A stretch of 64,000 nt of DNA. It comes from a virus. Shown here in pieces: positions 2,829 to 59,249 of the stretch. The stretch spans positions 30,784-94,783 of the IMG/VR virus record IMGVR_UViG_3300031787_009175. One strand, 5' to 3'. Every line of letters starts with the position of its first letter. Positions within the stretch are counted from its first letter, which is position 1. Position numbers and translations under genes: made by a program. Below the pieces are notes generated by a model, which was not told where the DNA came from, searched no databases, and saw nothing but the letters and a program-made list of their open reading frames with translations.

Positions 2829-3893
2829 TTAGGTTAGCCTAATTCTTAAAATTCCGTTATCGTGATAAATTCCACCTATTGGGACACCATAGTTTCCAGC
2901 ATCAGTGTCACCCGAGAAATTCAAATAAACTACTTGCTCCATTTGTGTTGTAGCCGTGGTCCCACTTATTTGAACTACTTTCAACGCATCTGCTCTTGCA
3001 CTTGTTGAGGTCCCACATCCAATTATAAACAATGAAGTTGTGTCACCTGTTGTATTAAACTTACCTGAAACGTGTTGGTATGAACCATCTGCCACAGTTC
3101 CGTAACCCTCTGCATGTGAATATGTTGCGTTTGTTTTGGTATCCCTACCTTCTGCGTGGGAATAAGATGCGTTTGCCTGAGTTTGTCTACCCTCTGAGTG
3201 TGAAGCAAATCCACTTGCCACAGTAGAATATCCTTCTGCGTGTGAATAACCACCCTGAGATGATGTGTTGAAACCTTCAGCATGTGAGTAATCTCCACTA
3301 CGAGTTGTTAATCTATATACTGATGTTCCTGAATATCCCGGTTCAAAAGTTATTGTTGTATTAGTTCCATCGAATGTTGAGTTACCTGAAACAGTCAATC
3401 TCACAGTTGGCTGACTTATAACCGATACTGTCCAAGTGATAAAACCATCGATATATGTACTAGTGTAATCACCAGCAATTACCACCTGATTTGATGATGA
3501 TACCGAAGAATTGATTACGTCTGTAACTCCAACTGACCTTGTGTTCTGGCCTTCTGTGTGAGAATAGTCGGCAAATGCCAAAGTTCCACTTCCTTGAGCA
3601 TGTGAGTATTGTCCTTCTGTAATATTTTGATAACCTTGTGAAACAGAATTAGTTCCATTTGACTGTCCACTCAAACCTTGAATTATCTTATCTTGTATAG
3701 TAATTCCACTTGATGTATATCCTGAAATTTGATTTGTAAACACGGGAGCACCTACTGATAGTAGAGCTGGCGCCATTTCACCAATTGTTGATTGAACGGT
3801 TGTGTCGGCGGTAATGTTCACCATAGGTATTGCGTGACTTGAAATCGGGGAACTGTCCGATGGTAGGTCTGTTATTCTTATAATATCACTCAT
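2829..3893 (-). CDS. Tail fibre/adhesin-like protein with YadA-head-like SHAEG repeats
   Basis: Multiple 14-aa repeats (YSHAEGxxTxAxG); N-terminus RITDLP typical of fibre proteins. Confidence 0.7.
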   Translation of the reverse strand: MSDIIRITDLPSDSSPISSHAIPMVNITADTTVQSTIGEMAPALLSVGAPVFTNQISGYTSSGITIQDKIIQGLSGQSNGTNSVSQGYQNITEGQYSHAQGSGTLAFADYSHTEGQNTRSVGVTDVINSSVSSSNQVVIAGDYTSTYIDGFITWTVSVISQPTVRLTVSGNSTFDGTNTTITFEPGYSGTSVYRLTTRSGDYSHAEGFNTSSQGGYSHAEGYSTVASGFASHSEGRQTQANASYSHAEGRDTKTNATYSHAEGYGTVADGSYQHVSGKFNTTGDTTSLFIIGCGTSTSARADALKVVQISGTTATTQMEQVVYLNFSGDTDAGNYGVPIGGIYHDNGILRIRLT

Positions 3894-3897
3894 TTTA

Positions 3898-4422
3898 TTA
3901 TGTATTTAACGTTATTATATATTTTGTGGTTGCCGAAAATCCCTGATTAGTGACTAACTTCATTTCATTTTGAGTTGATAAAAACTTTGCCAATTTATCA
4001 GGTCTCACATTATCACCGCAACAAGAATAATCTATATTATAATTATCAACAAAATTACTTTCATCTAAACCAAAACTTTCAATTACATTGATGTATAATT
4101 TATCGGTAAGTGGTAAAAAAATCACACCATCTGAATTCTTAATCATAAATTCACCAATGTATCTTCCTTCTTTTTTTGTGTTTTGTTTTGTAAATTGGAA
4201 CTCTAAATAATATTGTGTCAGACCATTTTCATCTATCTCACTTGTTACTTGAGCGTCCTTAGTTGATATTCTTGGAATGGAAGTTTCGGCATCAATCATA
4301 GAAAAAAATATTGTAGAACCAGACAATTCTGAGTATTGTTTGTGAAAGTCACTCCTCCCATCTTTCATCACTTTGACTTTTAGTTTTGGTAGAGTTGAAT
4401 TTTTTTTAATGAACCATTCCAT
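3898..4422 (-). CDS. Putative virion/baseplate adaptor (BppU-N-like), paralog of the next gene
   Basis: MEWFIKKNSTLP...GRYIGEF...LPLTDKLYINV, resembling BppU N-terminal domains. Confidence 0.5.
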   Translation of the reverse strand: MEWFIKKNSTLPKLKVKVMKDGRSDFHKQYSELSGSTIFFSMIDAETSIPRISTKDAQVTSEIDENGLTQYYLEFQFTKQNTKKEGRYIGEFMIKNSDGVIFLPLTDKLYINVIESFGLDESNFVDNYNIDYSCCGDNVRPDKLAKFLSTQNEMKLVTNQGFSATTKYIITLNT

Positions 4423-4442
4423 AATAAATCTTATTTTTGTTT

Positions 4443-4817
4443 TTATGTTTCATCACTTGTATAGCTATCCAAAACATTAATAAATAACTTTTCTCTTATA
4501 GGTATAACCAAAGTACCATCTTCAGTTTTCAAAACGAACTCACCTTGGTATCTACCAACTCTATTTAAGTGTTTTTTTAAGAACTTAAAATAAATATAAT
4601 ACTCTATTTTCGCATTTGGTTCTTCGAAGGTTTTTTCTACAAAACCAGCCGGACTCATATAAATTTTATATGAACCTGTATCCACATCAATCATTGAAAA
4701 ATACAAAGAAGATGTTTCGATTAAGTTCGAAAATGAATCTAATCCACCCCTGCCGTCGTCAACAACCTGCATTTTTAACACAGGCAGAGTTGCATTTTTT
4801 CTTATGTTAAATTCCAT
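4443..4817 (-). CDS. Putative virion/baseplate adaptor (BppU-N-like)
   Basis: MEFNIRKNATLP...GRYQGEF...IPIREKLFINV; start moved to 4817 by alignment with the paralog and the position of the TATTTAT motif. Confidence 0.5.
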   Translation of the reverse strand: MEFNIRKNATLPVLKMQVVDDGRGGLDSFSNLIETSSLYFSMIDVDTGSYKIYMSPAGFVEKTFEEPNAKIEYYIYFKFLKKHLNRVGRYQGEFVLKTEDGTLVIPIREKLFINVLDSYTSDET

Positions 4818-4822
4818 ACATA

Positions 4823-4859: not shown

Positions 4860-4867
4860 ATTAAGAA

Positions 4868-5680: not shown

Positions 5681-5682
5681 CA

Positions 5683-13444: not shown

Positions 13445-13887
13445 ATTTTTTTGTTATATTTTTCTATAACATCACTACATATACCAATACATAACGATGT
13501 ATTATCATCGTGCAATTCAGGTAAAACTGATATACTATTTTTAATGGGTTGTTTACCTGGATAAACCCATATGTGGTTATGCGATGTTAGTGTTATAGTA
13601 TCTGTTTCATGCCAAAAATAATTGAACTCATATTGATTTGTTTTAAAAAAAATTAATGAGTTAATATTCTTACAGTGAATCCATAATTTAGATTTTCTAT
13701 CTTCTAACCAATCAAGATTTATATCGTAAAGTGGTTTATCGTGTCCTAAAAATATATTGTCATTAACAACCCACACATCTATCTCAACATCATAACCGGA
13801 ATAGATTGCTTCATCTATGTATTCAGGATGGTTTTCTCTTAATTTATTTTCACCATTTATATTTCCTCTATGAGAAATCAATATCAT
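13441..13887 (-). CDS. Small GDPD/PLC-like phosphodiesterase
   Basis: ISHRGN, EN, VEIDV, LGHD, WIHCKN, GICSD. Confidence 0.7.
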   Translation of the reverse strand: MILISHRGNINGENKLRENHPEYIDEAIYSGYDVEIDVWVVNDNIFLGHDKPLYDINLDWLEDRKSKLWIHCKNINSLIFFKTNQYEFNYFWHETDTITLTSHNHIWVYPGKQPIKNSISVLPELHDDNTSLCIGICSDVIEKYNKKI

Positions 13888-15134
13888 AAATTCCCCGTTA
13901 TTCTTTCACACCATCCCTTAGATGTGGAATATGGCCATACAACCCAATACTTTGGTTTGTGAGATGTTTGGAATTCTCTCCAAACCTTACAATATCCATC
14001 AGGGTCATTTTTCATTCTGTTAATTTCATTTACATCAGCATCCTTTCTGAAAATTGTTTCGTCTTGTTCGTTGTGAAATGCAACTACCCAAAATTCATAA
14101 TCTTCTTCCGGAACTTGAGAATAACCAATATCAATACAATGTTTGAAAATTGATGCAAAACTATTTTTCCAATCCTCTTCGTTCTCAAAATTATATGTGT
14201 TTGGGGGATATGTTTTATCGATTGTTTCCTGTTGGATTGCCCTTCTTTCGAATAACAATCCTGAATATTTTTCATAATCCCTTAATGTTCTTTCAGTACC
14301 AAATCCATAAATTCCAAATTCATCGGGATTATAAGTTTCACCGTCCATAGAAAATAATTTTCTATTCTTAAGATGTGCTCTGTTGTTTTTTGAAACCCAA
14401 TCTCTATCATCGTCCCATTGTTTAGTTCTACCTTTTCTTGTATATTCGTGCCAAATTAATGCTTTATGTGGGTGAAACAAATCATATCCGTGTGTGTAAG
14501 CTCTTGCTGCGATTGAAATTTCTTCTCCGTGAAAATAGAATTCGGGGTCGTGTTGAACTTCTTTAGAAAATTCACCTAATGTGAAGCAGTAGTGTGCTGA
14601 GTAAAATCTCGCAGTAACAGGTTCCTTCAATTCCTGCCAATTTGGTATTGTTTCAGGTAAAAAGAAAACCGCCCCCTCAGGTATAAATCTATCGAACACC
14701 ATCCTCCAAGGTTCTTGAATTCTTTCTTGTGGGTCGTTATCAGGATTAAACGATGAAACATATCCCGTTAGAAGAGGTTTTTTATGACCTTTCTTTTGTA
14801 ATTGTTTAATCATTTTAATCATTTCATCATCCCAATTTGGTGCAAACCTCATATGTGAGTCAATTTGTAAGGTGTATTCTTCACCTTGATATAGTTGTTG
14901 AATTTGATTTCTTGCCCAACAAGCGCCATTTGACTCTAAATAAAAAATATCAAGTATTCTAAATCTTTTATCTTTTCTATATTCATCTAAAGTGTCAAAT
15001 TTATCATCAGGATGATATTGACGGGCAATTCCAAAAACTAAATTTTTTGGTTTTTTTGCATTTTCGATTGCTGATTTAATTGTTTTTTCTAATTCGGGGT
15101 CCCTATAAGACGCAATTTGAATAAAAATTTTCAT
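13884..15134 (-). CDS. GT60-like polypeptide N-acetylglucosaminyltransferase
   Basis: IFIQIASYRDPEL, GACWAR, LQIDSHMRF..WD, FHGEE, HEY: motifs of the Skp1/mucin-type alpha-GlcNAc transferase family. Confidence 0.8.
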   Translation of the reverse strand: MKIFIQIASYRDPELEKTIKSAIENAKKPKNLVFGIARQYHPDDKFDTLDEYRKDKRFRILDIFYLESNGACWARNQIQQLYQGEEYTLQIDSHMRFAPNWDDEMIKMIKQLQKKGHKKPLLTGYVSSFNPDNDPQERIQEPWRMVFDRFIPEGAVFFLPETIPNWQELKEPVTARFYSAHYCFTLGEFSKEVQHDPEFYFHGEEISIAARAYTHGYDLFHPHKALIWHEYTRKGRTKQWDDDRDWVSKNNRAHLKNRKLFSMDGETYNPDEFGIYGFGTERTLRDYEKYSGLLFERRAIQQETIDKTYPPNTYNFENEEDWKNSFASIFKHCIDIGYSQVPEEDYEFWVVAFHNEQDETIFRKDADVNEINRMKNDPDGYCKVWREFQTSHKPKYWVVWPYSTSKGWCERITGNL

Positions 15135-15206: not shown

Positions 15207-18200
15207 CTATGGTAATCCCCACGGAGCGCATTTAGGGTCGTGAGTTAAATCTGTAATTGTTGTGTATGTTGTACCAGGAGGACCTGGTATCATATCTCCT
15301 GATACAAGTGTGAATACGTAGTTACCGGATGAAAAAGTTATGTTGAACACTGCACCATTGACTGTTGCAACATAAAACTGAGGTAAAGTAATGCCTGGGA
15401 ATGGGAAAAACGGTCCTGACGCTCCATTAGATACAGGTAAGTTTAACTTTTGGGTTGTAGATTGTACCGAGTAAGTAAATGTGAATTGGTTGTAAATTAT
15501 ATCCACTAAATAAGTGTCAACGCCAACTTTGATTGGTAAAACAAAACTAGAAGGTTCTTCGTACAAATGTATAGAACCGTTCAATGTACCACCACTAGGT
15601 AAGTCAAATAGGAAAGTTTCTACAGGTGTTGAGGTTGCTATATTTACTCTATACATTTTCTGAACCCCTAAAACAGATTTTACATAATGTAGGATGTTGT
15701 TTGTACCAGGTTGGTTGTTTGCGATTTTTATTATATTACCACCAGTTACGTTTATAGTTCTATTATATATCGGATTGAAATTTGTGGCTGTAGTTGTAAA
15801 TTCATATATATTATTCATATCCGCAAAATACATTTTGTTGGTAGGACTATAAATGTTGGCAAAAGTGGTCAAAGAACCTGATGATAATTGAACCTCAATA
15901 TCTTCATACCAAATATTAGTTGCTAAAGAAGTGGGAGGTTGAGCGTATCTCGAAATGTTTGTCAGAGTTGTATATCCCAATGGTTCTCTTGTCATACTAT
16001 AGATATTACAACCCTGAATTCTTGTGATTGTATATGTATTAGAAAACCCTGATACTTGTTGACAAATAACTGAACTTCTATCACCCGCTGGAGGACAAGC
16101 ACCTTCTGAAAGTGGGTCACAACAAATTTTCACAACTCTGAAAAATAAGTTTGTGAATGAATTCGGAATTGGTCCATTGTTTACTGTTTGGGGAGATGTA
16201 CAAGAAAAATTAACACTTCCGATAAAACCTAACCAAGGACCATTCGGACTCACTGTAGAATATTGGACATTTACATCACAACAAGAATTACAATCAATTA
16301 AATCAAAAAACACACTATAAGTCCAACCACCATTTTGCTGGAATGAATAAGTTATATTAGTTATGTTCGGTCCGCAACAACAATCACTCGGTGTGTTAAT
16401 AAAAATACATTCATCACAATCACGACTAACTTTATATGATGCTGATAAAGATGTTGTTATGTCAGGAGAGTTACTACTTAATCCAAGCACCTGTAGACAC
16501 ATGTTATTTGGTGGTGCTAAGTAAATTTGGAACACTTGTGCGGTTATAAATTCATTATATTGTAAAGAAGTTAAACCGGTCAACCTTACATAATATGTCT
16601 GTGACGTACAACAACTTTCTGTTTCTAGAGTGACCTCAAAGTTCGTTTGAGTTGGAGTCGGTGTGACAGTAGGTGTTTTTGTAACTGTAGGTGTTTGAGT
16701 TGGTGTTTGAGTATTTGTAGGGCTCTGCGTTAAAGTCGGAGTTTGTGTCGGCGTTTGTGACTTTGTTGGGGTTGGTGTTTTTGTCGGTGTTTTAGTTTGT
16801 GTAACAGTAGGGGTTACTGTTTTTGTTGGGGTAGGTGTCGGAGTAGGTGTCGGAGTAGGTGTTGGTGTTGGGGTAGAACTAACAGGTGATAAGCAGTTCG
16901 CGCAATCAACATAAGGACCTCCGTTTACCGTTGCTGTAAATTGTGAATTAACGCAACCTGTGAGTGTATCGATAACGGTGAAACAATTTTCTTCGATTCT
17001 TTCTATCCCTATTATATTGTTTGCATTATATGTTACGTTATTAATTGTAATACTACTAAAATTACCACCAACTAAATATCTTCCACTTTGATTGTCTATT
17101 TTGATGATATCGTAAAACTCACTATTTGTACTACCTGTCATAGTTTGAAGAAGAGAACCATCTGAGTTAACATAGTACAATTTGCCAATATTCTTGTTAG
17201 TACCAACTAAAAATTTTCCATCACTCAAAAGAAGGATTTTCAAAAAAATTTGGGTCGAGGTAAATCCACTAGACCAAGATTGGGCGTTGAATGTATTGTC
17301 GATTGTCCCGCCAGAATCGAATCGTACGATATTTACAATATTTTGGGTATTTGCCGATGAAAATCCACCAACCACAACAATCTTACCGTCGTTTTGAATC
17401 ACTAAGTCTATTGCACCTCCTAAACCTCCAACGTTGTTTACAGTACCAGAGAATGTAGTGTCCAAAGTACCATCCGTATTTAACCTCATAATACCTTTAA
17501 GAGGGTTGGAATTATAACCAGTTATATTTCCACCGACAACAACTTTATCGTCAGATTGTAATTTGATTGTAAAAATATCTCTCATTTCAGCACCATTACC
17601 ATAATTGACAAAAGAGGTATCTATTTCCCCATTGGATTTCAACTTTATTAATCCTGGACTTGAAAATCCTGAATATGTGGTAAATGTACCTCCAACAAAA
17701 AATCTATCTTGTACTAATGTATCTAAAGTTAATACATAAACCTCTTGGTTAAATCCTGTACTTGAAGAGAATGTATTATCGTAAACCCCTGCATCGGTTG
17801 TTCTGACGATATAGTTAACGTTATTTACTCCATAACCTGTAAATCTACCACCCAAAATTATATTCCCTGTTGACTGTTCAATTGTATCGAAAACATAAGA
17901 ATTGGCACCACCCGCATCTGTATAATTTTGGAACTCATTAGAATCAAATAAAGAATCGAAAGTTCCAACACCATTTGTGGATGTGTACAAATAAGCGATA
18001 TTTCCGTTGTATGCTGAAAAAGAACCACCATAAATTATTGTATCGGCTTTCTGAGTGAGTTGTAATAAACTTGAAACCTGTGCATTCAGACCGCTAAAAC
18101 CTATCCCATATACAAATTCTTGGTCTTTGTAAAATACATCAGGGAATCCTGTAATGTTATATGTGTTATTTTCCAACAAAGTTGTGGTACTGTCGGCGGT

Positions 18201-21200
18201 AAAGGTCAACCCACTCACTGTACATGAACTCAAAACGTACGATTCTAAATTCACACTTGTACAACCATTACAATCACTATAACCTGTCCAAGCAATTGTT
18301 GCACCTGTTGTTTCAACACTACCCCCACCTCTACTATAACACAAATCATTATAAACAATCACAGGTTGGAAATATATAGAATATCCCGCATCATAAATAG
18401 GGATTATATCTCCACCATCACAACAATTTGTGTAATCCCTAACTCCAAACCCACACGGGTTACCTAGATTGTTTAACGCTACCGTACAATTGATATAGTC
18501 GTAATTTATAAAACAGTTAGTACCGAAGTTACCTGTTGAAGCACTTACCATAGAATATGGTAGACTGTCATCAGGATTAATAACAACATTACCCGCCACG
18601 AAGTTTTCAGGAACAATTCCAAATGTGACTAAAGTTGGAGTACCGTATGGGTCATCGCAACAAGATATAAAATCATAAGCGGTAAATCCACACTCACACT
18701 TGTTTTGTTGTTGACACTGAAGACATTCTCCAGTTTGGAAATCCGGAATTTCATAACTGAAAACACCTGATTGACTATTATCAAATGCAACCAATTTAAA
18801 ACATTTTGTGCCTGTTATGGTCGGGTCTTCATATTGTACAATATCACCAATATCCCAACCTGTATTATTTACATTGAAATAATATGTTAGTGTTTCGGTG
18901 CAACAATCTGTAAATCTTGCTCTTGTACAATATTGATTTAGATAATTAGACTCGCATGTTGAGCAATCACTTAAGAATGAACTAACAGGGAACGGTACTT
19001 GTGGGTTTACAGACCCAATGGTTGAACTTCCATTGAAATATAAACAAACTCCGACGGCCGTACCTCCACCTAATCCTCCCGTACCTTGAGTTGTTGTAGT
19101 ATTTCCTATTTGTAAATCATAAGAGAATTGAGTACCATATTGTGTTGTTTGTCCCGTCGGCACGACATTAACAACAAATTGTGTATCACCTGAACAACAA
19201 TCTAAAAATATCATAGGACAACCAACAGTTTGTACACATTCCCAACAAGTTGTATAAGCGGTAGTTGTATAGCTTTCACTATAAGTGCCCTCCTCAGGCA
19301 GATACTGATAAGCACTATAACATTGATTATTTGTTGTATCGGTGACTACATCTCCGACAGACCAAGAGTGTGTGAAAGTATCTAATAAATAATATTTTAC
19401 ATCGGTTTGAGTACAACAATCTCTGAATTCCCAAACTTGGAATTGAGGTGCGGGGGTTGGGGTCAAAGTCGGTGTCTGAGTAACCGTTACAGTTGGTGTT
19501 ACGGTTGGGGTTTGAGTATTTGTCGGTGTTTGAGTATTTGTAGGAGTTTGTGTGTTAGTAGGTGTGACGGTTGTGGTTGGCGTTTGTGTCTTGGTTGGTG
19601 TAGGAGTTGGAGCTGGTGTTTTAGTTGGAGTTTGGCTTACACAATTTATTGTACCATAAATGTCCAATTGGCATGCATCACAATCGTTATAGACTGATGA
19701 TAATGCAGGTGGATTAGTTAATGTGTAGATTGTAGTTGGATTGGATTCTATTATCGTTGCACAACCAACAAACAAATCCGAAACAATATATAACGTTTCT
19801 CCTATTTCATAGTTATATGGTATGGATGCAAATTCATCAGCAAAAATGAACTTTATTGAATTACAACAAGAGCTGAAACATCTAGTAACTTGGGCGGAAC
19901 ATAATTCACAATTATCAAATGTAGCACCTGTAATATAACTGCTTATGACAGATGGTGATGAATCAATAATATCTACCAAAGTCCAACAACCAGATAAATT
20001 AGACAATCCTACAACATCACCTAAGTTTATCGGAAGTGGTTCATCTACAAATACACAATTATCCGTAGGTTCGTTATATGAAATAATTCTATTGAATGAA
20101 TTTGTGATATTTGTTGTCGAGAACCCTGTTACAGTTGGGTCAATCTGCCAATTAAAGTTTTTCAATCCTACACCATCTTGTAATGATGGAGTCAGGTTTT
20201 GATAAACCGTACTAGCCGTAAACGCTGTAATAGGATTTATTGTTTCCAAAGTAACAAATGTCCAATTAGGTGACATAACAGGATTTATAAACGGCCATAC
20301 ACCACCATTGAAATTGTATTTGTTACCAAAATATGTCGATGTATTTGTCTCGCCTTCAATTATAGCCAAAGAAGTTAAAATGAATTGATATCCAATAGGT
20401 AGGTTATATGGTTGAGGTAATATTCCTGCAAAAGAAGGTTCAGGATATAAAAAGTTTTCTATTTCCCCTAAAGATACATATTTCAAATCATACCAAACAT
20501 TCAAATATGCCTCATAATCATCTAACACATTAGTTAAATTGAAATTAAAATTATCCGGTTGATTAGTTGTATTACCTGATGTATTATATCCACTAGTGTT
20601 GGTAGTATAAGCGTTTTGAGCCTCATTTATGATATTAATAGTGATATAGTTAGTATCTCTGAATGAATCTACGTTTCCACCATAGGTATATATCGGTGAT
20701 GAATTTACCGTGTCAGATGAGAAAGAATTTCTTATACCACTCGAATATTGGTTTTTTGTCCCATCGAAATTTAAACCTCTGTTGATATTATAGTTCACTG
20801 TACCAACACCCCCATCAACAACATAACAGTTCAAAGGATTACTTATAAATCCTGATGACAATGTTCCTCCCAATAAAGACCCCAAATACGGATAGCAAGA
20901 CCACCACATCCAATTCATACCGTATACCACCATTTCGTATAAATTTCCAGTGTAACCGCTATTGTTTACTAAATCCGAATACCAAGACCTAATATTTTGA
21001 GATGCCCCACTTAATGTTGACGGTGAGTACGAAGGACTTGCATCATAAAAAACATAAATGTTTTTTGTTAAATCGGTTGTCGCCGAACACTGACACATTT
21101 GATAAATTGGATTGAAAGAACATTCACCTTGTGAGTTTGTACAACCACTACAACTTGCAAATGTAGAACCTGTATTTGAATTTAGGTAATATAAATTTTC

Positions 21201-24200: not shown

Positions 24201-25076
24201 AAACTCCCTTGCAACCACAGAACATCCACTAAATGCGTCAGTTTCGAAATAATAAACTTTTGTGGGGTCCACCTTATCTATATAACCAACATTATCTATC
24301 AGGTTGAATATATATCCCCCACAACAAGAGCTAAATGTTAGAGGTAATAAAGTTGAGGTTGGAGTTACCGTTGGTGTTGGTGTTGTAGTAGGTGTAGGAC
24401 ATACACTAGAACCTGTCTCGGCCGACAAACATAAATCACAAGTATTATATTCAGTTAGAGCGGTGTAAGTATATGTTGCACTCGGTCTACCAAACCCAAC
24501 TGTTGCACAAGTACTAAAACCTGAGTCAGTTTCAACATAGTATGTTTTAGTTTGGTCTAACACATCCTCTATTTTACCGTTAGATACAGCAAAAACAAAA
24601 TTACCACAACAAGATATAAAAGATAATGTTAAATTTGTTGGTGTTATTGTAGGAGTTGGTGTTTGGGTTGGTGTTGTTGTTGGCGCTGGCGTTCTTGTCA
24701 GTGTTGGTGTTGCAGTAATTGAAGGTGTAACTGTTGGAGTAACTGTATTTGTGGGGGTTACTGTTGGAGTATTGGATGTTGGTGTAACTGTAGGGGTTAC
24801 AGATGGAGTTACGGTTGGTGTTGGTGTAAATGTGGGGGTTGGTGTTTGTGATATTGTACAATCTATCACTTGGAATGTTTCGCAACCAACCCCATCGACA
24901 ATTTTCAAAATCAAAGGATTCAACCCCTCGAACTCTGCCGGTATAGGGTCTTCTATTGTCGGTGGAATTGTTGTTAGAATTTCAGACAATAGGTAACAGG
25001 TTGTGAGAGTTAAATCACAAATACTTATACTATATGGTGGGGTTCCCGTTACATTATTAACCTGAATTATATTCAT
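15207..25076 (-). CDS. Giant 3289-aa mucin-like protein: Thr/Pro repeats, Cys-rich modules, vWA-like and delta-60 beta-propeller domains (probable virion fibre)
   Basis: Uninterrupted ORF; TPTNTQ/TPT blocks; repeated FxxCC...C...CxxC modules; DASPS MIDAS-like motif; [23 protein letters not shown] repeats; TATTTAT upstream. Confidence 0.85.
22495..24110 (-). repeat. Coding tandem repeats ([10 protein letters not shown]) forming the main mucin-like block
   Basis: Degenerate 12- and 18-bp units such as GTATTAGTTGGTGTTTGA; about 540 aa made almost entirely of T/P/N/Q. Confidence 0.9.
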
Positions 25077-41223: not shown

Positions 41224-42162
41224 TTGAATAGAATATTAATAACTGGTGGTGCCGGCTTTATAGGGCGCAAATTCGTTGATTACATTTTAAAAACAACGAA
41301 GGCGTATATTATAATTGTTGACAATCTTTATAATAGCACAATTGATAGAATACCTAATAATGAAAGAGTAAATTTCATAAATTGCTCCGTATTAGATGTT
41401 GATAAATATTCTAAATACCTGCAAGAATGTGATTACATATTTCATATGGCTTGCGTTCAAATTTCTAAGTCAAGTTTTGTCCCTCAAATTGATTTGGACA
41501 CTAACGCCACATCAACTCTGAAAATTTTGGAGTATCTTAAAGACAACAAAACAAATTTGAAAAGATTCGTGTACACCTCATCGTGTTCCATATATGGACA
41601 ATCAAAAGAATCACCAATAACTGAAAATACTCCACCTAATATTTCAAGTATATATGCTGCAACAAAGTATCTAGGTGAAAACTATACAAATTTATATCAC
41701 AAACTTTTCGGTATTCCCGTATCAATAATAAGGTATTCAAATGTATACGGCACTGGGCAAATACCTGATGGTAAAATTTGTGGTGTAATAGGTAAATTTA
41801 TATATGAATCAATAAATAAAGAACCTATTACTATTTTTGGAGATGGAGAACACAAAAGAGATTATTCATTCATTGATGATGTATTACTGGCGACATATTT
41901 GGTATCTAAGTCCGAAAATACTTTAGGAGAAACTTATAACGTATCTACCAATACCAATCATTCTGTCAATGATATAGTGAGTATAATTGAATCTAATATT
42001 GGTGAGGTAAAAAAAAGTTATAGAGAACCTAGAATCATAGATAACATCGTTAGTAGATTAATTTCTTATGACAAATTGAAAAGAGACACTGGTTGGACAC
42101 CAAACCACTCAATCCACTCCGGAATAGAAAAAACAATTAACAATTTAAAGTTACAAAAGTGA
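41224..42162 (+). CDS. NDP-sugar epimerase/dehydratase (extended SDR)
   Basis: ITGGAGFIG, YAATK, RYSNVYG, RDYSFIDD. Confidence 0.9.
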   Translation: MNRILITGGAGFIGRKFVDYILKTTKAYIIIVDNLYNSTIDRIPNNERVNFINCSVLDVDKYSKYLQECDYIFHMACVQISKSSFVPQIDLDTNATSTLKILEYLKDNKTNLKRFVYTSSCSIYGQSKESPITENTPPNISSIYAATKYLGENYTNLYHKLFGIPVSIIRYSNVYGTGQIPDGKICGVIGKFIYESINKEPITIFGDGEHKRDYSFIDDVLLATYLVSKSENTLGETYNVSTNTNHSVNDIVSIIESNIGEVKKSYREPRIIDNIVSRLISYDKLKRDTGWTPNHSIHSGIEKTINNLKLQK

Positions 42163-42797
42163 ATCAAAAAATTTTTATAGATATAGTGAAACCTTTTACA
42201 ATGACCTCAATAGAAAGAATTGTTGAGTTATTCAATTCTTTAGAGTATATTAGATTAAATAAAATAGACGGTGATTTTGTTGAATGTGGTGTTTGGAGAG
42301 GAGGTAACATTTTAGGAATCATGGAGTATTTACATTTTTATAATATGACAGATAGACACGTTTGGATTTACGACACATTCCAAGGAATGACACAACCCGA
42401 AGAAATTGATGTGGATTTAAACGATAATAAGGCGTCGACAATACTACAAGAAGTGATTTGTTATTCATCAATTGACGAGGTCAAGAAAAATTTGTCAATT
42501 TCTAGTTTTCCTAATGAGAAAATAAAATATGTGGTTGGAGACGTGTGTGAAACATTGGATGTTAATACAAATATACCAAATAAGATTAGTCTCCTTAGAT
42601 TAGACACTGATTGGTATAAATCAACAAAAAAAGAATTAACCGTTCTGTATCCTAAATTGATTACTCATGGTATTTTAATTGTAGACGACTATGGTCATTG
42701 GAGGGGTTCAAAAACTGCAGTTGATGAATTTTTTTTGAATCAAAATATAAATATTACAGAAATTGATTACACGGGTATTAAAATTGTAAAACCATAA
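42159..42797 (+). CDS. TylF/MycF/NovP-family sugar O-methyltransferase
   Basis: TMTSIER, GDFVECGVWRGG, DTFQGM, LRLDTDWY, DDYGHW. Confidence 0.9.
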   Translation: MNQKIFIDIVKPFTMTSIERIVELFNSLEYIRLNKIDGDFVECGVWRGGNILGIMEYLHFYNMTDRHVWIYDTFQGMTQPEEIDVDLNDNKASTILQEVICYSSIDEVKKNLSISSFPNEKIKYVVGDVCETLDVNTNIPNKISLLRLDTDWYKSTKKELTVLYPKLITHGILIVDDYGHWRGSKTAVDEFFLNQNINITEIDYTGIKIVKP

Positions 42798-42815
42798 ATA
42801 AAATATAATCTCATA

Positions 42816-43787
42816 ATGAAAAAAACTCTAATTACCGGCATCAACGGCCAAGACGGTTCATATTTGGCCGAATTTTTACTATCCAAAAATTACGAAGTTC
42901 ACGGAACACTAAAAAGGAATTCAGTCTCCGAAAATCAAACATCAAGATTAGAAGGTATATACGATAAAATCACTTTACATTATGCGGACCTATCAGACCT
43001 ATCTTCTTTAGTATCTGTAATACAAAAAGTGATGCCTAACGAAATATATAATTTAGCCGCACAATCTCACGTTAGAATTTCATTTGACCAACCAATATAC
43101 ACCGCAAATGTTACCGGAATAGGAACATTAAATTTATTAGAGGCGGTTAAATTAATTAAACCCGACACTAAAGTCTACCAAGCATCTTCATCAGAAATGT
43201 TTGGTAATTCAATAGATAGGGATGGATTACAAAGAGAAACAACCCAAATGAATCCAGTATCACCATACGGATGTGCTAAAGTTTTTTCATACCACATATG
43301 TAGAAACTACAGAAATTCATATGGTATGAAGATTTGGAACGGGATATTATTTAATCACGAATCCCCAAGAAGAGGAACCAATTTTGTAACTAATAAAGTT
43401 GTAAAAGAAGCGGTAAAAATTAAATTTGGTCTATCTAATGAATTAAAATTAGGAAATTTAGACGCAACTAGAGACTGGGGTCATGCAAAAGATTATGTCG
43501 AAGCAATGTGGTTAATGTTACAAGATGACACCCCTGATGATTATGTATGTGCGACAGGAATTTCTCACTCTGTAAGAGAATTATGTGACTATACTTTTTC
43601 TAAATTAGGGTTAGATTATAAGAAATATGTTAAACAAGACCAAAAACATTTCAGACCTGAAGAATTGAGTGATTTAAAAGGTGATTCATCGAAATTGAGA
43701 AATAAATTGGGGTGGAGCCCAAAATATACTTTTGAAGTAATGATTGATGAAATGATAGAATATTGGTTAAATTACTATGGGAAATAA
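42816..43787 (+). CDS. gmd: GDP-mannose 4,6-dehydratase
   Basis: ITGINGQDGSYLAE, NLAAQSHV, QASSSE, SPYGCAK, LFNHESPRRG, RDWGHA. Confidence 0.97.
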   Translation: MKKTLITGINGQDGSYLAEFLLSKNYEVHGTLKRNSVSENQTSRLEGIYDKITLHYADLSDLSSLVSVIQKVMPNEIYNLAAQSHVRISFDQPIYTANVTGIGTLNLLEAVKLIKPDTKVYQASSSEMFGNSIDRDGLQRETTQMNPVSPYGCAKVFSYHICRNYRNSYGMKIWNGILFNHESPRRGTNFVTNKVVKEAVKIKFGLSNELKLGNLDATRDWGHAKDYVEAMWLMLQDDTPDDYVCATGISHSVRELCDYTFSKLGLDYKKYVKQDQKHFRPEELSDLKGDSSKLRNKLGWSPKYTFEVMIDEMIEYWLNYYGK

Positions 43788-44691
43788 AACATTAGTAACA
43801 GGTGGGTACGGTTTAGTCGGTTCCGAATTTAATAGTTTAAATTATATACCACTATCGTCAAGTGAGGCAGACCTACGAGTTAGGTCTGAAGTCGATAATG
43901 TTTTAGAAAAAATTAATTTTGATAGTATTATACATTGTGCGGGAAAAGTAGGTGGAGTAGGTGGTAACATGTCATATAAAGGTGATTTTTTCTATGATAA
44001 TATAATGATTAATACAAATGTTATAGAGTCGGCAAGGACTCATGACATTAAAAATTTAGTGGCCTTTTTATCAACTTGCATTTTTCCTGACAAAGTGGAG
44101 TATCCCCTAACAGAAAAAAAAATTCATTTAGGACCCCCACATTTTTCTAACGATGCGTACGCATATGCAAAAAGAATGGCTGACATCCAAATAAGAGCGT
44201 ATAGAGAACAATACGGACTAAATTACAAATCAGTAATACCGACAAACATTTACGGACCTAACGATAATTATAATATCGAAAATGGTCATGTCATACCATC
44301 ATTAATCCATAAGTGTTACTTAGCCAGAGAAAATAAAACACCATTTACTATATGGGGAACAGGAAAACCCTTAAGAGAATTTATTTTCAGTAAAGATGTT
44401 GCAAAATTAACGGAATGGGTTTTGGAAAATTATGACGAACCAGAACCAATTATATTATCAACTTCAGAAGAAATCTCAATTAAAAATGTTGTTGATATAA
44501 TTGTTGAGTTAATGAACTTTAAAGGAAATATTATTTGGGATGAGTCAAAACCTGATGGTCAATTCAGAAAACCGAGTGATAACAGTAAAATAAAAAGTTA
44601 TCTACCTGACTTTGAATTCACCAATTTATATGATGGGTTAAAACAAACAATTGAATATTTTGAAAAAAATTATAGTATTATAAGAAAATGA
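43777..44691 (+). CDS. fcl: GDP-L-fucose synthase
   Basis: GGYGLVGS, AGKVGG, STCIFP, YAYAKR, PTNIYGP, HVIPSLI, WGTGKPLREF, KPDG. Confidence 0.95.
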   Translation: MGNKTLVTGGYGLVGSEFNSLNYIPLSSSEADLRVRSEVDNVLEKINFDSIIHCAGKVGGVGGNMSYKGDFFYDNIMINTNVIESARTHDIKNLVAFLSTCIFPDKVEYPLTEKKIHLGPPHFSNDAYAYAKRMADIQIRAYREQYGLNYKSVIPTNIYGPNDNYNIENGHVIPSLIHKCYLARENKTPFTIWGTGKPLREFIFSKDVAKLTEWVLENYDEPEPIILSTSEEISIKNVVDIIVELMNFKGNIIWDESKPDGQFRKPSDNSKIKSYLPDFEFTNLYDGLKQTIEYFEKNYSIIRK

Positions 44692-46347: not shown

Positions 46348-47424
46348 ATGAATCCTGAATTAATTCAAAAATTAGAAAAATCTATCTCAAACTTAAAAGA
46401 TAAAAGTTCGAGAATTTATTTTATGGTTCAAGATACAAAAGGTAACGCTAAAGGTTCCGTATCTTACATCTACAAAATGGCCCTTACATTAAAAAGGGCG
46501 GGTTATAACTCCATTATCCTTCACGAAAAACCTGACTATATGGGAGTAACTTCTTGGTTAGGTGAAGAATATATGACTGAATTACCTCATAAATCAATCG
46601 AAGGACAGAACTTAGATGTTGCTCCTGATGATTTCATAATTGTTCCAGAGTTATATGGTTTTGTTATGCCACAACTCAATAATCTACCTTGTTCAAAGAT
46701 AGTATTATGTCAATCGTATGACTATATGTTTGAAACATTACAACCTGGTCAAACTTGGGCTCAGTTTGGATTTAACAAATGTATAACAACTTCTGAGTTA
46801 CAAAAAGAATACATATCAAATGTTATGAAAAATGTTACTTTTGATATTGTAGAACCATTGATTTCAGAGGTATTCAAAAAACAAATTTTACCACCAAAAC
46901 CAATTATTGCGGTTCACACAAGAGACCAAAGAGAAACTTTAAACTTAATCAAAACCTTTTACATTAAATTCCCTCAGTATCGTTGGGTAACTTTCAGAGA
47001 TATGAGAGGATTATCTGAAAGTGAATTTGCCAAAGGTTTTAATGACGTGTTTTTGTCAGTTTGGATTGACGATATTAGTGGCTTCGGGACCTTCCCAATA
47101 GAATCTATGAAATCAGGTGTTCCTGTAATAGGTAAAATTCCAAATTTATTTCCGCAGTGGATGAATGAAGATAACGGAATTTGGATTCAGAATCAGAACC
47201 AAATTGTAGATTTTGTTGCTGATTTCATTCAAAATTGGTTGGAGGATAATATCAATACTACAATTTATGAAGGAATTGAGAAAACCGCTAACGAATACTC
47301 ATCCAAAGAAAAATATGAAAATAAAGTTGTAAGATTATTTGATTCTTATTTTTCTACTAGAATGATATCATTTATGGAACAATTAAATAAACTTGAAACA
47401 CCAGTAACAGAAGATGGAAAATAA
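46348..47424 (+). CDS. GT-B (GT4-like) glycosyltransferase
   Basis: DFIIVPE; SGFGTFPIESMKSGVPVIG. Confidence 0.7.
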   Translation: MNPELIQKLEKSISNLKDKSSRIYFMVQDTKGNAKGSVSYIYKMALTLKRAGYNSIILHEKPDYMGVTSWLGEEYMTELPHKSIEGQNLDVAPDDFIIVPELYGFVMPQLNNLPCSKIVLCQSYDYMFETLQPGQTWAQFGFNKCITTSELQKEYISNVMKNVTFDIVEPLISEVFKKQILPPKPIIAVHTRDQRETLNLIKTFYIKFPQYRWVTFRDMRGLSESEFAKGFNDVFLSVWIDDISGFGTFPIESMKSGVPVIGKIPNLFPQWMNEDNGIWIQNQNQIVDFVADFIQNWLEDNINTTIYEGIEKTANEYSSKEKYENKVVRLFDSYFSTRMISFMEQLNKLETPVTEDGK

Positions 47425-48220
47425 ATTAGATATTTCAGTAATTTTACCTATCAAAAGTGCAACCGCACGAGATTTTGATGATTTTTTCGATAAAGCAATC
47501 AATTCTATTAAAACACAAAAAGTTGCAATAAATGAATTGGTTATTGTCCATACCGATGAAGAAAAACTAATTGATATATTAAACTCCTACGATTTCGGTG
47601 ATATTAATGTGGTTAAATTAAAGTGGTTGAAAGAACCAAATTATTCGAAACAATTGAATTACGGTGTGGAAAACGCTAATTCAACTTGGGTTTCATTTTT
47701 CGAATTCGATGACGAATACTCATCAATTTGGTTCAAAAATGTTGAGAACTATATCACACATTATAATGATGTCGACGCTTTTTTACCAATTGTAATTGAT
47801 ATCGATAATAAAGGGGTTTTTGCAGGATTTACAAATGAAGCCACTTTTGCTGCTAACTTTACCCCTGAAATTGGTATACTAACGAACGAAACTTTGCAAA
47901 ACTACCAAAATTTTCAAACCTCTGGTATGGTTATCAAAAAAAGTGTTTTTGAGAAATATGGGAAAATGAAATCCACTTTGAAATTAACATTTGTTTATGA
48001 ATTCTTGTTGAGAATGACTTATAATTCAGTAAGAATAATGACAATCCCTAAAATTGGATACAAACATATCAACTTAAGGGAAGGTTCAATTTTTTGGAAT
48101 TATAAAAATGGTCAGGAACCATTGACACAAGAAGAAGTAAAATTTTGGATTGACACTGCGAAAAAAGAGTATTTCTTTTTCGATGATAGAACAATAAAAT
48201 ACGAACCCCAAATGGTTTAA
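47414..48220 (+). CDS. GT2 glycosyltransferase
   Basis: ISVILP, LNYG, FFEFDDEY, FLLR. Confidence 0.8.
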   Translation: MENKLDISVILPIKSATARDFDDFFDKAINSIKTQKVAINELVIVHTDEEKLIDILNSYDFGDINVVKLKWLKEPNYSKQLNYGVENANSTWVSFFEFDDEYSSIWFKNVENYITHYNDVDAFLPIVIDIDNKGVFAGFTNEATFAANFTPEIGILTNETLQNYQNFQTSGMVIKKSVFEKYGKMKSTLKLTFVYEFLLRMTYNSVRIMTIPKIGYKHINLREGSIFWNYKNGQEPLTQEEVKFWIDTAKKEYFFFDDRTIKYEPQMV

Positions 48221-53100: not shown

Positions 53101-54573
53101 ATGTCGATAAATAATTCGTATTTTAGCAGGAATAACACAATACTTTCTAACGTATACACTAATACAGGTAGAAGCCCTATTACTCAACTTTATTTTGGCT
53201 CAACAACATCACAAAATCCTACGGTTGCGTATTCGAGATTCATATTCGATTTGGATTTGACCTTATTACAACAAAAATATTCCAATGGGACAATTACCTC
53301 AGGTTGTAATTCGACCGCAACTCACACATTGATGATGAGAAATACAGGTTCATTTGATATTGGATTACTTAACACATTAATACCATCTGAAAATAGACAA
53401 AGGGCAACATCATTTGATTTAGTTCTTTTTAGAATTCCTAAAACAACAACTGAAAACGGAATTCCCCAACTTTGGGATGAAGGAGTGGGATATGATTATA
53501 CAGATTTAATGTCTAACGTAGGAGATAAAAATTTCTCTCAAAGACCATCTAATTGGTATCAAACAACAACTTTATCTGGTTGGTCAACTAATGGAATTTA
53601 TGATAATACTAATTCGCAGTCAGGAAACGTTATACATTATTCAGCACTAACAATAATAGATGAACAGCATTTTGAGTTCGGAAATGAAGACATATCATTT
53701 GATATGACAAATGAGATAAATTCAATTTTGAATGGAAGTTTAACAGGTGTCACAGGTTGGGGTATCGCATACAAACCACAATTAGAATTAATAACAGGAT
53801 TAACTCAAGCATACACCGTTGGGTTTTTCACAAGGCACACCCAAACTTTTTACGAACCATATCTACTAACTGATTATAATGACTTGATAAGTGATGACAG
53901 AGATTTATTTGCTCTCAATAAAGTAAATAAATTATATCTTTACGTATATGATGATGGAAATCCAATAAATTTGGATTCTAATCCAACCGTGGCTATAACA
54001 AATAATAATGGTGATGTGATTCCATCATTATCAGCATTGACTACTTGTAGAAGAACCAAAGGTGTTTATGAGGTGACCGTACCGGCACTGTTAGGATATA
54101 AAACCCCTTGCACTTTTACTGATACTTGGAAGGGATTATATTTAAATGGGGTTCAAATACCAAATATAGAAAATGAATTTGTTATAAGACCCTTATCATC
54201 TTCTATTTCTATTGGAACATCAACTAATGAACCATCAGTATATGGATTCGATTATTATGGTATAAAACAAGATGAAAAGATATTAAATACAGATATTCGT
54301 AAAGTTGGTGTGATAATCAAAAAAGAATATACATCAAATCAACCTTTAAATAAAATAAAGGCTTATTATAGAGTTTATGTTAGGGAAGGTCAGACCGAAG
54401 TTCAAGTCCAAGATTGGACACAAGTTAATAAAACACCAAATGAATATTATTTTATATTTGACACAAGGGATAAAATTCCAAATGAATATTATATAGATTT
54501 GAAATTAGATATTAATGGTGAAGTCACCACTTACAAAAGACAAATCAAGTTTCAAATCGTTAATAAAAAATAA
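53101..54573 (+). CDS. Putative virion structural protein
   Basis: 490 aa, beta-rich; SRFIFDL, WDEGVG, FFTRHT..YEPYL. Confidence 0.6.
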   Translation: MSINNSYFSRNNTILSNVYTNTGRSPITQLYFGSTTSQNPTVAYSRFIFDLDLTLLQQKYSNGTITSGCNSTATHTLMMRNTGSFDIGLLNTLIPSENRQRATSFDLVLFRIPKTTTENGIPQLWDEGVGYDYTDLMSNVGDKNFSQRPSNWYQTTTLSGWSTNGIYDNTNSQSGNVIHYSALTIIDEQHFEFGNEDISFDMTNEINSILNGSLTGVTGWGIAYKPQLELITGLTQAYTVGFFTRHTQTFYEPYLLTDYNDLISDDRDLFALNKVNKLYLYVYDDGNPINLDSNPTVAITNNNGDVIPSLSALTTCRRTKGVYEVTVPALLGYKTPCTFTDTWKGLYLNGVQIPNIENEFVIRPLSSSISIGTSTNEPSVYGFDYYGIKQDEKILNTDIRKVGVIIKKEYTSNQPLNKIKAYYRVYVREGQTEVQVQDWTQVNKTPNEYYFIFDTRDKIPNEYYIDLKLDINGEVTTYKRQIKFQIVNKK

Positions 54574-56982: not shown

Positions 56983-57031
56983 AAAAAAATATTTTTCGTA
57001 TTATTATAAATATCATCAAACATATAAAACA

Positions 57032-57223
57032 ATGAAAAATGAAAATTTAGATTGGACCACCGAAATCAGAAATGAGTTTTACAAAAATATTTTAGATAAT
57101 TATAATTTATTTGAAAGTATCGAGGACGGATATAATTGTTTCATACAAAATAAAACAAAAAATGATGGAAGAAAAAAATATACAGATTTTGACAAATCTT
57201 TTTGGGAAGTTAGAAATAACTGA
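57032..57223 (+). CDS. Hypothetical protein
   Basis: 63-aa ORF with A-rich leader; overlaps the next ORF. Confidence 0.4.
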   Translation: MKNENLDWTTEIRNEFYKNILDNYNLFESIEDGYNCFIQNKTKNDGRKKYTDFDKSFWEVRNN

Positions 57224-57389
57224 TAACACTCAGTTAGATACACTTTTGTGTTCTATGGATAATAATTTAGCAACAGTATTTTTAATACAGGCGGTTGAAT
57301 TTGCATATGAAAGAGGAGCATTCAATTTAGTTGAATCAGAGGTGGTATCTAAAAGTATTAGAATTTTAAATTCTAACCCCAATAAATAA
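57162..57389 (+). CDS. Hypothetical protein
   Basis: Probable ATG at 57162; ends just before a terminator. Confidence 0.6.
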   Translation: MMEEKNIQILTNLFGKLEITDNTQLDTLLCSMDNNLATVFLIQAVEFAYERGAFNLVESEVVSKSIRILNSNPNK

Positions 57390-57417
57390 AAAAAGGGACG
57401 ATTTCTCGTCCCTTTTC
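57388..57417. terminator. Bidirectional intrinsic terminator downstream of the capsid gene
   Basis: AAAAGGGACGA-tttc-TCGTCCCTTTT. Confidence 0.85.
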
Positions 57418-57437
57418 ATTATAACATTTCAAATTGA

Positions 57438-59249
57438 TTATCTCAATTCTCTCAAGTCGAATGTACGTACACCATCCACTGTGATACGTCCGTAGAAACG
57501 GTTGTTAACCATTTTCTTAGCGTAACGTGTCATAATACCTTTGATAGGTGTAAAGTTAAATGGATTGTACATTGTTGGAGTTAATTGTAGAGGTACATAC
57601 GGTGCGTAAATGTAACCTGTGTCAAGTAACGAAGTACCTTTGTGACCAATCAACACTGTGTTTGGTGGGAAGTAAGGGTCACGGTATACTTGATAACGAC
57701 CAGCTAATGTACCTACTCTTTCGATACCCATGTTGTATTGGTCTTGCTCAGGTGAAGCATTTGATACGTGGAAGTATTCCAAGTCATCAAAAATCGCAGA
57801 AACCTCAGAAGATACAACAATCCAGTTAGCACCACCACGAAGAGTTGACTTGTGAATTTGTGCAGAAATTTGGTTGATTGCGGTAATCAATGTTTGGTTC
57901 CAGTCTTTTTGAGTGTATGGAGTAGTTCCTGTTGAAGACAGACGTTTCCAACCATTGTAATCCCAACGTAAGTTCCAAGCCGCTCCTTTACGTAAGTCAC
58001 GTAGAATTTCACGGTCAATTTCTGCTGCAACTTGTTCTGACAACAACGCTGTCAATTCAGCCTCAGCATCGATATTGTGGAATGCTGCAACGTCTTGTGC
58101 GAGTTCAGGTGACCATTGTGCTCTTAGTTTTCTTTCAGAAACTGATACAGTAACTGATTCAAGGTCAAACGAAACTTCACCAATTTTATCTTCAAATTCA
58201 AGCTCTTCGTAACGTCTCCAAGCAGCAATGAATGCGGTATTCGCGGTGGTTGATGACGAGAATGTTGAGCCAGTGTATCCATCCAAAGATTCAGAACCAC
58301 AGTTAATACAAGATGGTACTTGTAAATCCACTTCCAAGTAAATAACACCATTTGCTGTGCAAATATCATCATAAGACCCTCCATTTCCTGTACTAGGCCA
58401 TTGTGTAGATGAGCTTCCACCATATTGTACTATACCTTTACCGTATTTTTGAGTTACAACTCTGAACAAATAAGGATTCAATACATTAGCAGATGTCGTT
58501 GTGTTTGTACTTACACCAAGAATTTTGAGGTCTGACAAGAATGTTTCTGAGTCAATTTCTTGACCATCAGGACCTATCAATTTACCAGCTCCTGAGTTAG
58601 AGAAACCTGACATTGCAACTAATACTTTTCTATAGTTAGCACTTGTATAAGCACTTACAACTAATTCTCCTGTTGTTGCACTCCAAGCAACTGTAGTAAC
58701 TGAACCTGTGATTGCAGACCAACGACCTTTTGAGTAGTCGAAAAGTCCTGGAGGGTCAAGACCCGCTTCAGCACCTTCATAAAATAAATCGTAAAGATTT
58801 TTAGCGTAGGCACCAGCTCCAGTGTATCCTGTGTTAGGGTCCCCTGGATAGTTACCTGGTGAACCAACAGGGGCATAATGTTCTCCTGATGATGAGGCGG
58901 AACCTCCATTATACCCTTGGATTTTAGGAACGAAATAGAATAATTTACCGATTGGTAAGTTCATAGCCTGAACCGATACGATTTCGTTAGCCAATAATTT
59001 AGAGAAAACACGTCTTACGATTGGAAATACAACCGTTTCGAATGCTCCGTTTGAAGATTCTGATGAAGCTTCGTTAATCAAATGTGACGCTTGGTTTTCA
59101 TACAACTGCGCAACATTTTCTTTTAGGTGACCACGTAGGCCTTCAAGGAACCCTAATCTGTCCCATTTGTTGATAGTATCTTCTTTGATAACTTTAAGGT
59201 GCTTAAGACCAATGTTACCAACAAGACCTGATTCTAATAATGCTCCCAT
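57438..59249 (-). CDS. Major capsid protein (T4 gp23-like)
   Basis: VSVQAMNLPIGKLFY, RKLRAQWSPELAQD, AEIDREI, GYIYAPYVPL, GIMTRYA. Confidence 0.95.
   Translation of the reverse strand: MGALLESGLVGNIGLKHLKVIKEDTINKWDRLGFLEGLRGHLKENVAQLYENQASHLINEASSESSNGAFETVVFPIVRRVFSKLLANEIVSVQAMNLPIGKLFYFVPKIQGYNGGSASSSGEHYAPVGSPGNYPGDPNTGYTGAGAYAKNLYDLFYEGAEAGLDPPGLFDYSKGRWSAITGSVTTVAWSATTGELVVSAYTSANYRKVLVAMSGFSNSGAGKLIGPDGQEIDSETFLSDLKILGVSTNTTTSANVLNPYLFRVVTQKYGKGIVQYGGSSSTQWPSTGNGGSYDDICTANGVIYLEVDLQVPSCINCGSESLDGYTGSTFSSSTTANTAFIAAWRRYEELEFEDKIGEVSFDLESVTVSVSERKLRAQWSPELAQDVAAFHNIDAEAELTALLSEQVAAEIDREILRDLRKGAAWNLRWDYNGWKRLSSTGTTPYTQKDWNQTLITAINQISAQIHKSTLRGGANWIVVSSEVSAIFDDLEYFHVSNASPEQDQYNMGIERVGTLAGRYQVYRDPYFPPNTVLIGHKGTSLLDTGYIYAPYVPLQLTPTMYNPFNFTPIKGIMTRYAKKMVNNRFYGRITVDGVRTFDLRELR

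Follow-up and report, generated by a model that had tools for sequence, protein, structure and literature searches.

The stretch of viral DNA considered here, called the window, is 64,000 nucleotides long and comprises bases 30784-94783 of a 94.8-kb viral contig (IMG/VR record IMGVR_UViG_3300031787_009175), which probably amounts to roughly one third of a jumbo-phage genome, since its gene order is common with that of four relatives of 256-272 kb. These four IMG/VR genomes (G001-G004, estimated to be 85-91% complete) served as the comparison set; the nearest cultured relatives, at ~40% capsid identity, are Flavobacterium phage immuto and Microcystis phage Mel-JY01. In its features the phage appears to resemble the 'moraphages', which have Flavobacteriia hosts, T4-like core genes and four core glycosyltransferase (GT) orthogroups (PMC12619734), and Flavobacteriia are the predicted hosts of its clade. 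At issue is a four-residue motif, [ST]-[GA]-x-[ST], that recurs in several of the proteins encoded here and that a preliminary description, made from the letters of the window alone, had put forward as a new acceptor sequon for O-glycosylation. Besides the proteins of interest the window encodes a prohead protease, the C-terminal part of a portal protein and a family-B DNA polymerase. The motif carriers, the last of which is encoded upstream of the window, are as follows.

25562..27484, minus strand: LamG/concanavalin-like protein of 640 amino acids (aa), 15 motif sites, 9 of them TGxT
57438..59249, minus strand: gp23-type major capsid protein (Pfam Gp23, E 1.9e-73)
53101..54573, plus strand: 490-aa protein of the structural block, family unassigned, 6 sites
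15207..25076, minus strand: giant protein of 3289 aa with Thr-Pro linkers, Cys-rich modules and a DUF5122 propeller (Pfam), 34 sites
2829..3893, minus strand: 354-aa fibre-like protein with YSHAEG repeats, matching phrog_25468, 10 sites
contig 17948-21508 (= L085:2948-6508), minus strand: contractile tail sheath of 1186 aa (phrog_23, E 2e-53; Pfam sheath domains)

Expected counts came from 1000 shuffles, supplemented by shuffles inside blocks of 20 or 40 residues, and six other arrangements of two S/T, one G/A and one free position served as permuted controls. By these measures the motif excess is confirmed as real, and it is a strong one, confined to a discrete group of large proteins of which most belong to the virion. 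Shuffles of the LamG-like protein yield 1.8 sites on average, close to the two or so that had been anticipated, where the real sequence has 15 (p<0.001); the permuted arrangements give 0-4, and TGxT alone counts 9 against 0.3. The sheath, second most enriched protein of the contig, has 22 sites where 7.7 are expected and where permuted arrangements give 6-12; 19 of the 22 are inside an insertion spanning residues 105-550. For the capsid protein the figures are 9 sites against 2.7 by shuffle (p<0.001) and 3.1 by block shuffle (p 0.001), and eight of the nine do fall, as had been noticed at the outset, in its central insertion (residues 117-335, between two Pfam Gp23 stretches). The 490-aa protein has 6 against 1.5-2.1 (p 0.004). 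In the giant protein, where roughly 30 sites had been reported from the non-repeat parts, all 34 are outside the Thr-Pro linkers; global shuffling yields 25.8, and 16 when composition is kept in 20-40-aa blocks (p<0.001). The fibre is the weakest case: its ten copies are there, though their enrichment is marginal (10 against 4.8, p~0.02, permuted controls 4-7). The counts in the preliminary description for the LamG-like protein, fibre, 490-aa protein and capsid, and the single site in the sugar-nucleotide enzyme Gmd, were thus reproduced exactly.

Shuffling within blocks leaves these results as before and, together with the six permuted arrangements, rules out global or local composition as the cause. 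Taken together, the enriched set has 77 sites against 24.4 expected, while the remaining proteins, 21 kaa (thousand amino acids) in all, have 28 against 30.6 (z -0.5), so that the shuffle control which had been proposed as a check leaves the excess standing. After [ST][GA], the probability of S/T at +3 is 0.46 in the enriched proteins and 0.14 in all others, the background being 0.18; at +2 and +4 in the enriched proteins it is 0.22-0.23. When 3000 reduced-alphabet three-position patterns were scanned without bias, this motif ranked first in the enriched set (z 10.6), the runner-up having a z of 4.5. Position preferences go beyond the defining residues: a hydrophobic residue tends to precede the motif, Ser is favoured at 1 and Thr at 4, and x is aromatic or aliphatic at 45% of sites against a background of 31%. 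Codons at the sites vary freely, and because they differ from site to site the signal acts at the protein level and a DNA-level cause is ruled out. The motif is also distinct, as had been asserted, from the Bacteroidota pattern D[ST][ALVIMT], counts of which in five of the proteins are at or below shuffle expectation (e.g. 2 against 2.1, 0 against 2.0, 1 against 1.7). Nor are the carriers evident kin: blastp among the five enriched proteins gave no mutual similarity at E<=0.7, and on that ground shared domain ancestry was rejected as the source of the motif. One small non-structural protein of 247 aa (48220-48963, plus strand; no Pfam family found) has 2 sites against 0.2 expected (p 0.014) and is possibly the 'sigma-like' protein whose two copies had been entered as a caveat.

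Is this a habit of Ser/Thr-rich phage structural proteins at large? There is no excess in the structural and fibre genes of T4 (69 against 43-89 for the controls), in a 41-kb structural region of immuto (88 against 56-104), or in the 40-kb capsid regions of the huge uncultured phages LR756508 and LR756511 (16 against 26-44 and 17 against 11-22). Their S/T/G content being similar, these four rule out a generic trait. Within the lineage the picture is otherwise. Each of G001-G004 has 7-15 large proteins with significant motif excess, and the rest of each proteome is close to local-shuffle expectation (100 against 115, 149 against 125, 160 against 164, and 103 against 102). LamG-like orthologues have 16-18 sites in the stand-alone versions of G003 and G004 (permuted 2.6-3) and 27-29 in the longer fused open reading frames (ORFs) of G001 and G002; sheath orthologues have 11-14 against 5-7, those of the 490-aa protein 5-8 against permuted controls of ~2.5, and the capsid orthologues are weakly enriched (4-7 against 2.6-5). 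When ten motif-rich proteins of G004 were compared with PHROG, those that received names were one head-decoration-like and one minor-tail-like protein. LamG-like family members at 30-45% identity are richer if anything, with 1.94 sites per 100 aa against 0.28-0.77, and in a distant clade at ~35% identity the neighbours of the LamG-like gene are motif-rich as well. For the low-motif family member P0211 no locus was found among viral contigs, and no LamG-like homologue was found in the cultured-phage collection.

The LamG-like homologues, which form >2100 clusters at 50-80% identity, are often fused C-terminally (P0006-P0120) to a papain-like peptidase C1, VWA, Fib_succ_major or DUF1566 domain, and the protein and its homologues carry Cys-dense inserts (CGCGC), unusual for a protein assembled in the cytoplasm. 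Two fibre-like proteins of the relatives (G003:C1:755-9516, minus strand; G004:C1:104663-105931, plus strand) contain ~100-300 Gly-Ser/Thr-Ser triplets (SGTSGSSGSS...), arrays that can be read as tandem motif copies and that could be poly-acceptor arrays or collagen-like stalks.

The way the sites change in evolution is informative. Across 119 LamG-like homologues the motif turns up at 41 core positions and the permuted patterns at 18-24; of the motif sites, 3 are kept in >=90% of the sequences, 6 in 50-90% and 12 in 10-50%. Homologues of the sheath (n=120) average 17.9 copies per protein against 6.3-9.3, and 84 positions are used; over these two families motif density is 2-10x that of permuted controls. 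Three capsid site columns are conserved in 4-5 of five orthologues, with substitutions at the S/T, G/A and x positions, and in the 490-aa protein two columns are kept in all five and one in four. Changes in the conserved columns of these two proteins stay within class (SALT/SGLT/SAIT, TGVT/TGTT, SGFS/TGFT, TGST/SGLT/TGTT/SGAT), and most of the remaining sites in the five orthologues are singletons. With conserved columns never leaving the motif classes and sites elsewhere being gained and lost, selection would seem to act on pattern and density, beyond particular residues. In the LamG-like family, TG[YF]T at residues 160 and 389 (numbering of a 648-aa ORF) is invariant, with the aromatic x conserved.

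Mapping the sites on predicted structures had been suggested as a further check. The AlphaFold2 (AF2) model of the LamG-like protein is confident (predicted local distance difference test score, pLDDT, 85.7) and shows a concanavalin-type jelly roll with large insertions. Structural comparison by VIA-align gave Z 13-15 with 195-240 residues at a root-mean-square deviation (rmsd) of 2.9-3.7 A for most top matches, these being toxin HCN domains, CBM40, lectin-like/receptor-binding domains and, ranked top with an rmsd of 11.3 A, a cyanopodophage tailspike; neither Pfam nor PHROG gave a match. Thirteen of its 15 sites are in non-regular yet well-ordered segments, a share little different from that of all its S/T residues, 75% of which are in coil. 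The core of the sheath model has pLDDT below 50 and the 105-550 insertion is confident, and site mapping was restricted to the latter, where the 19 sites divide into coil 10, strand 5 and helix 4. No single structural element behind the motif is seen in these two models, and the occurrence of sites in coil, strand and helix alike argues for a signal at the level of sequence instead of a single structure. In both models the sites are in folded segments of high pLDDT, not in disordered mucin-like tracts; motif sites cluster in the insertion domains of capsid and sheath and in loops of confident models.

What in such a phage might read a motif of this kind? The genes for glycosyl transfer and sugar-nucleotide supply are abundant, the principal ones being:

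30233..31495, plus strand: core GT of 420 aa, GT-B (GT1/GT4-like), with a weak Pfam Glyco_trans_1_4 match, 2.7 kb from the LamG-like gene
33152..34651, plus strand: core GT of 499 aa, double GT-A (GT2), Pfam Glyco_tranf_2_5 and Glycos_transf_2
46348..48220, plus strand: two core GT genes, a 358-aa GT-like protein (46348) and a 268-aa GT2 (47414, Pfam GT2)
13884..15134, minus strand: homologue of GT60 polypeptide alpha-GlcNAc-transferases (PF11397, E 7.7e-69)
41224..44691, plus strand: sugar-nucleotide genes by Pfam, namely an epimerase/dehydratase, a TylF-type O-methyltransferase, Gmd and a GDP-fucose-synthase-like reductase

The GTs at 30233, 46348 and 47414 had been named as candidates, and all three, together with that at 33152, prove to be core genes, found in all of G001-G004 in conserved order; the GT60 homologue had been overlooked. 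Every motif-rich genome examined carries these four. The GT at 30233 is 61-82% identical in the four relatives and absent from immuto, and it occurs in 73 of 80 loci flanking LamG-like genes (49-54% identity in the distant clade); that at 33152 occurs in 63 of the 80 and in 4/4 relatives. The two are 3-8 kb from the LamG-like gene in 63-73 of the 80 loci, with 43-54% identity in the distant clade. PDB sequence searches with both gave no match, and the protein at 46348 matches 8xsg, a glucoside-glucosyltransferase, at E 3e-6. The structural block follows this last gene and 47414 at a distance of ~1.1 kb, and two small conserved genes (48220-48963 and 48991-49353) intervene. The GT at 30233 has >7900 database hits, mostly 73-98% identical, as well as weaker homologues of 25-28% identity in phi92/phAPEC8-type coliphages annotated as 'disaccharide synthase', and it adjoins genes for a 3'-5' exonuclease and a dUTPase.

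The GT60 family comprises protist polypeptide alpha-GlcNAc-transferases that start mucin-type chains (PMC3769586), and the homologue here matches PF11397 with 233 bits (cut-off 21) over profile positions 95-350 plus an N-terminal stretch. It is the sole gene here from a polypeptide-initiating O-GT family, and the match makes protein glycosylation by the phage plausible in general. Its gene adjoins that of the giant Thr-Pro protein, and the two are candidates for a mucin-type pair distinct from the tetrapeptide motif. GT60 is also present in G002 and in G004, in which the (SGTSGSS)n gene is two genes downstream; it was not found in G001 and G003, the contigs of which end beside their S/T-rich genes. 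Gmd and the GDP-fucose-synthase-like reductase were found in G001 and G002; G003 and G004, motif-rich, showed neither gene, and the motif is therefore independent of them. Further window genes are a GT8 (39261), an HtrL-like protein (5730), a HAD-nucleotidyltransferase fusion, at least five O-methyltransferase-like genes and two epimerase/reductases. Around the GT1 homologue of megaphage LR756501 no S/T-rich proteins were found. Elsewhere on the contig (26556-28094, plus strand) a 512-aa phage protein joins an Fe/Mn superoxide dismutase domain to a C-terminal half of ~280 aa of no assigned family.

As judged from these comparisons, selection acts on the tetrapeptide as a linear sequence motif in those virion proteins of the clade that face outward. 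The best single explanation, though one we advance tentatively and at somewhat short of even chances, is that it would be an O-glycosylation acceptor determinant of phage virion proteins. The fuller proposition is possible and held with more reserve: a cytoplasmic phage GT may read the motif as an undescribed sequon and thereby decorate folded proteins of the capsid, the sheath and the lectin-like kind, throughout a clade of aquatic jumbo phages that is very abundant. Glycan attachment, the hydroxyl that accepts it and the enzyme that initiates are what we infer. Newly made particle proteins would be O-glycosylated at the motif in the host cytoplasm, the initiating enzyme would be one of the phage's own GTs, and its other GTs and methyltransferases would then extend the glycan. 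Since motif density is unrelated to how near GT60 lies, such a reader, if there is one, is more probably among the four core GTs than GT60 itself. What lends the proposal substance is that the excess replicates in G001-G004 and in the clade at ~35% identity, and that core GTs (two of them near the structural block), a GT60 homologue, sugar-nucleotide enzymes and O-methyltransferases occur in one phage. A reader acting in trans is consistent with sites that turn over, carriers that are unrelated, restriction to one lineage and the absence of a common structural context. The initial proposal of an acceptor motif on which unrelated surface proteins converged is supported in part, by the unrelated carriers, by the limitation of the excess to a discrete group of large, mostly virion proteins of one lineage, by the motif-preserving substitutions and turnover, and by the finding that the three named GTs are core genes.

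Several considerations weigh on the other side. Covariation of motif and GTs across relatives had been seen as a test, and all the motif-rich relatives examined do carry the core GTs; however, this co-occurrence may be shared ancestry, there being no genome examined that has one without the other. Immuto, a single outgroup, carries GT2 genes, no GT-B gene and no motif excess; since it has GT2 genes without the excess, GT presence alone predicts nothing and covariation with GT2 presence is uninformative. The invariant TG[YF]T sites with their conserved aromatic x are as would be expected of structural residues, the models place sites in well-folded segments and not in disordered mucin-like tracts, and the GT at 30233, being among nucleotide-metabolism genes, may have DNA or lipid as its substrate. 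Non-virion proteins show no depletion of the motif. A literature search for O-glycosylation motifs of TGXT/SGXT type found no published sequon of such form.

Foremost among the alternatives is a structural or surface grammar peculiar to the lineage and involving no modification, hydrophobic-S/T-Gly-hydrophobic-S/T serving to cap strands or build loops in Thr/Gly-rich decoration domains, with the hydroxyls there for solubility or for contact with water or polysaccharide. This we regard as doubtful yet deserving of serious attention: some sites are invariant across the LamG-like family with Tyr/Phe conserved at x, positions 0 and 3 favour hydrophobic residues, the regions concerned are confidently folded, and family members at 30-45% identity have remained motif-rich. 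Such a grammar is harder to reconcile with the lack of a common secondary structure, as in the spread of sheath-insertion sites over coil, strand and helix, with enriched proteins devoid of detectable mutual sequence similarity, with the absence of excess from T4, immuto and the two huge-phage regions despite similar S/T/G content, and with the many sites that are sporadic gains at new positions.

That something other than a GT reads the motif, be it an enzyme of some other post-translational modification, a chaperone of assembly or a component of the host surface to which the virion binds, is improbable in our judgement. The statistics would equally fit any trans-acting reader of a linear motif, and the asymmetry of Ser at 1 and Thr at 4 suggests directional recognition; but Pfam searches with most of the contig's proteins revealed no kinase or other Ser/Thr-modifying enzyme, while glycan genes are plentiful. 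A slimmer chance still attaches to the motif being a second acceptor class of the GT60 enzyme, besides the Thr-Pro linkers. Known GT60 substrates are Thr/Pro-rich disordered tracts, which speaks against it, as does the site count of LamG-like orthologues: 15 of 78 loci have GT60 no more than 10 kb from the LamG-like gene, and the counts with and without it are equal (12.7 and 13.0), so that covariation of motif density with GT60 is rejected. Its apparent absence from G001 and G003 is weakened as evidence by where those contigs end. In its favour, GT60 is the sole family here known to initiate on polypeptides (PMC3769586), and in G004 its gene is two genes upstream of that for the (SGTSGSS)n protein. 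An artefact of composition, or of the choice of motif, is finally very improbable, and the controls contradict it: the motif was indeed defined post hoc and the fibre and capsid enrichments are modest, but it came first of the 3000 patterns, block shuffles and permuted arrangements are flat, and the excess recurs in independent genomes and in >200 homologues.

To return to the motif as a glycan acceptor, virion glycosylation is, to our knowledge, established experimentally for few phages and a sequon for none, and the closest parallels come from the following systems. Chlorovirus PBCV-1, a virus of eukaryotes, glycosylates its capsid with virus-encoded enzymes, in contexts of (A/G)-N-T-x-T type. 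Its glycan machinery, too, is its own and cytoplasmic, with GDP-sugar synthesis and methylated sugars, and its major capsid protein bears a short non-canonical sequon, but the linkage is N-linked to Asn. Proteoglycan xylosylation, the work of a eukaryotic Golgi enzyme, occurs at Ser-Gly-x-Gly and in Ser-Gly arrays with acidic flanks; it too has a hydroxyl residue followed by Gly, and its S-G poly-acceptor arrays parallel the (G-S/T-S)n arrays of the relatives here, whereas it has Gly and not S/T at +3, and a homologous enzyme was not detected in this phage. The TibC/AAH autotransporter heptosyltransferases are cytoplasmic and modify many Ser/Thr on a folded beta-rich adhesin by way of a short structural motif, the resemblance being cytoplasmic O-glycosylation of many hydroxyls on a folded beta-rich protein; their substrates, in contrast, are beta-helix repeats, and no homologue was identified in the contig. 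Mucin-type initiation by GT60 differs in that its acceptors are Thr/Pro-rich disordered tracts while the motif is in folded domains with a density unlinked to GT60 proximity; the likeness to the systems of Dictyostelium and Trypanosoma cruzi (PMC3769586) is the strong PF11397 homologue beside a Thr-Pro-repeat protein. In the account of Freeman et al. 2023 given in PMC12619734, the capsid and tail proteins of mycobacteriophages are decorated in the cytoplasm by GTs of the phage; phage-encoded GT genes are the shared element, but the glycans of that account are on C-terminal tails of capsid and tail-tube subunits, whereas the candidate tetrapeptides are scattered through folded insertions. The general O-glycosylation sequon of Bacteroidota, D-(S/T)-(A/I/L/V/M/T), is used in the periplasm on exported proteins, and is similar in being a short degenerate Ser/Thr sequon in the phylum predicted to host these phages (PMC12619734); the motif here contains no Asp, its requirements being a small residue at +1 together with a hydroxyl at +3.

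With >2100 LamG-like clusters and >7900 for the GT1-like enzyme, the clade is very abundant in public metagenomes. Should the motif not be an acceptor site, exposed phage proteins would still carry a four-residue signature that is under strong selection and awaits explanation. If it is one, a small defined set of substrates and enzymes would be at hand for biochemistry, with possibly a new tool for site-directed bacterial glycoengineering, and the glycan shields of uncultured phages would become mappable and the virion glycoproteome predictable from sequence.

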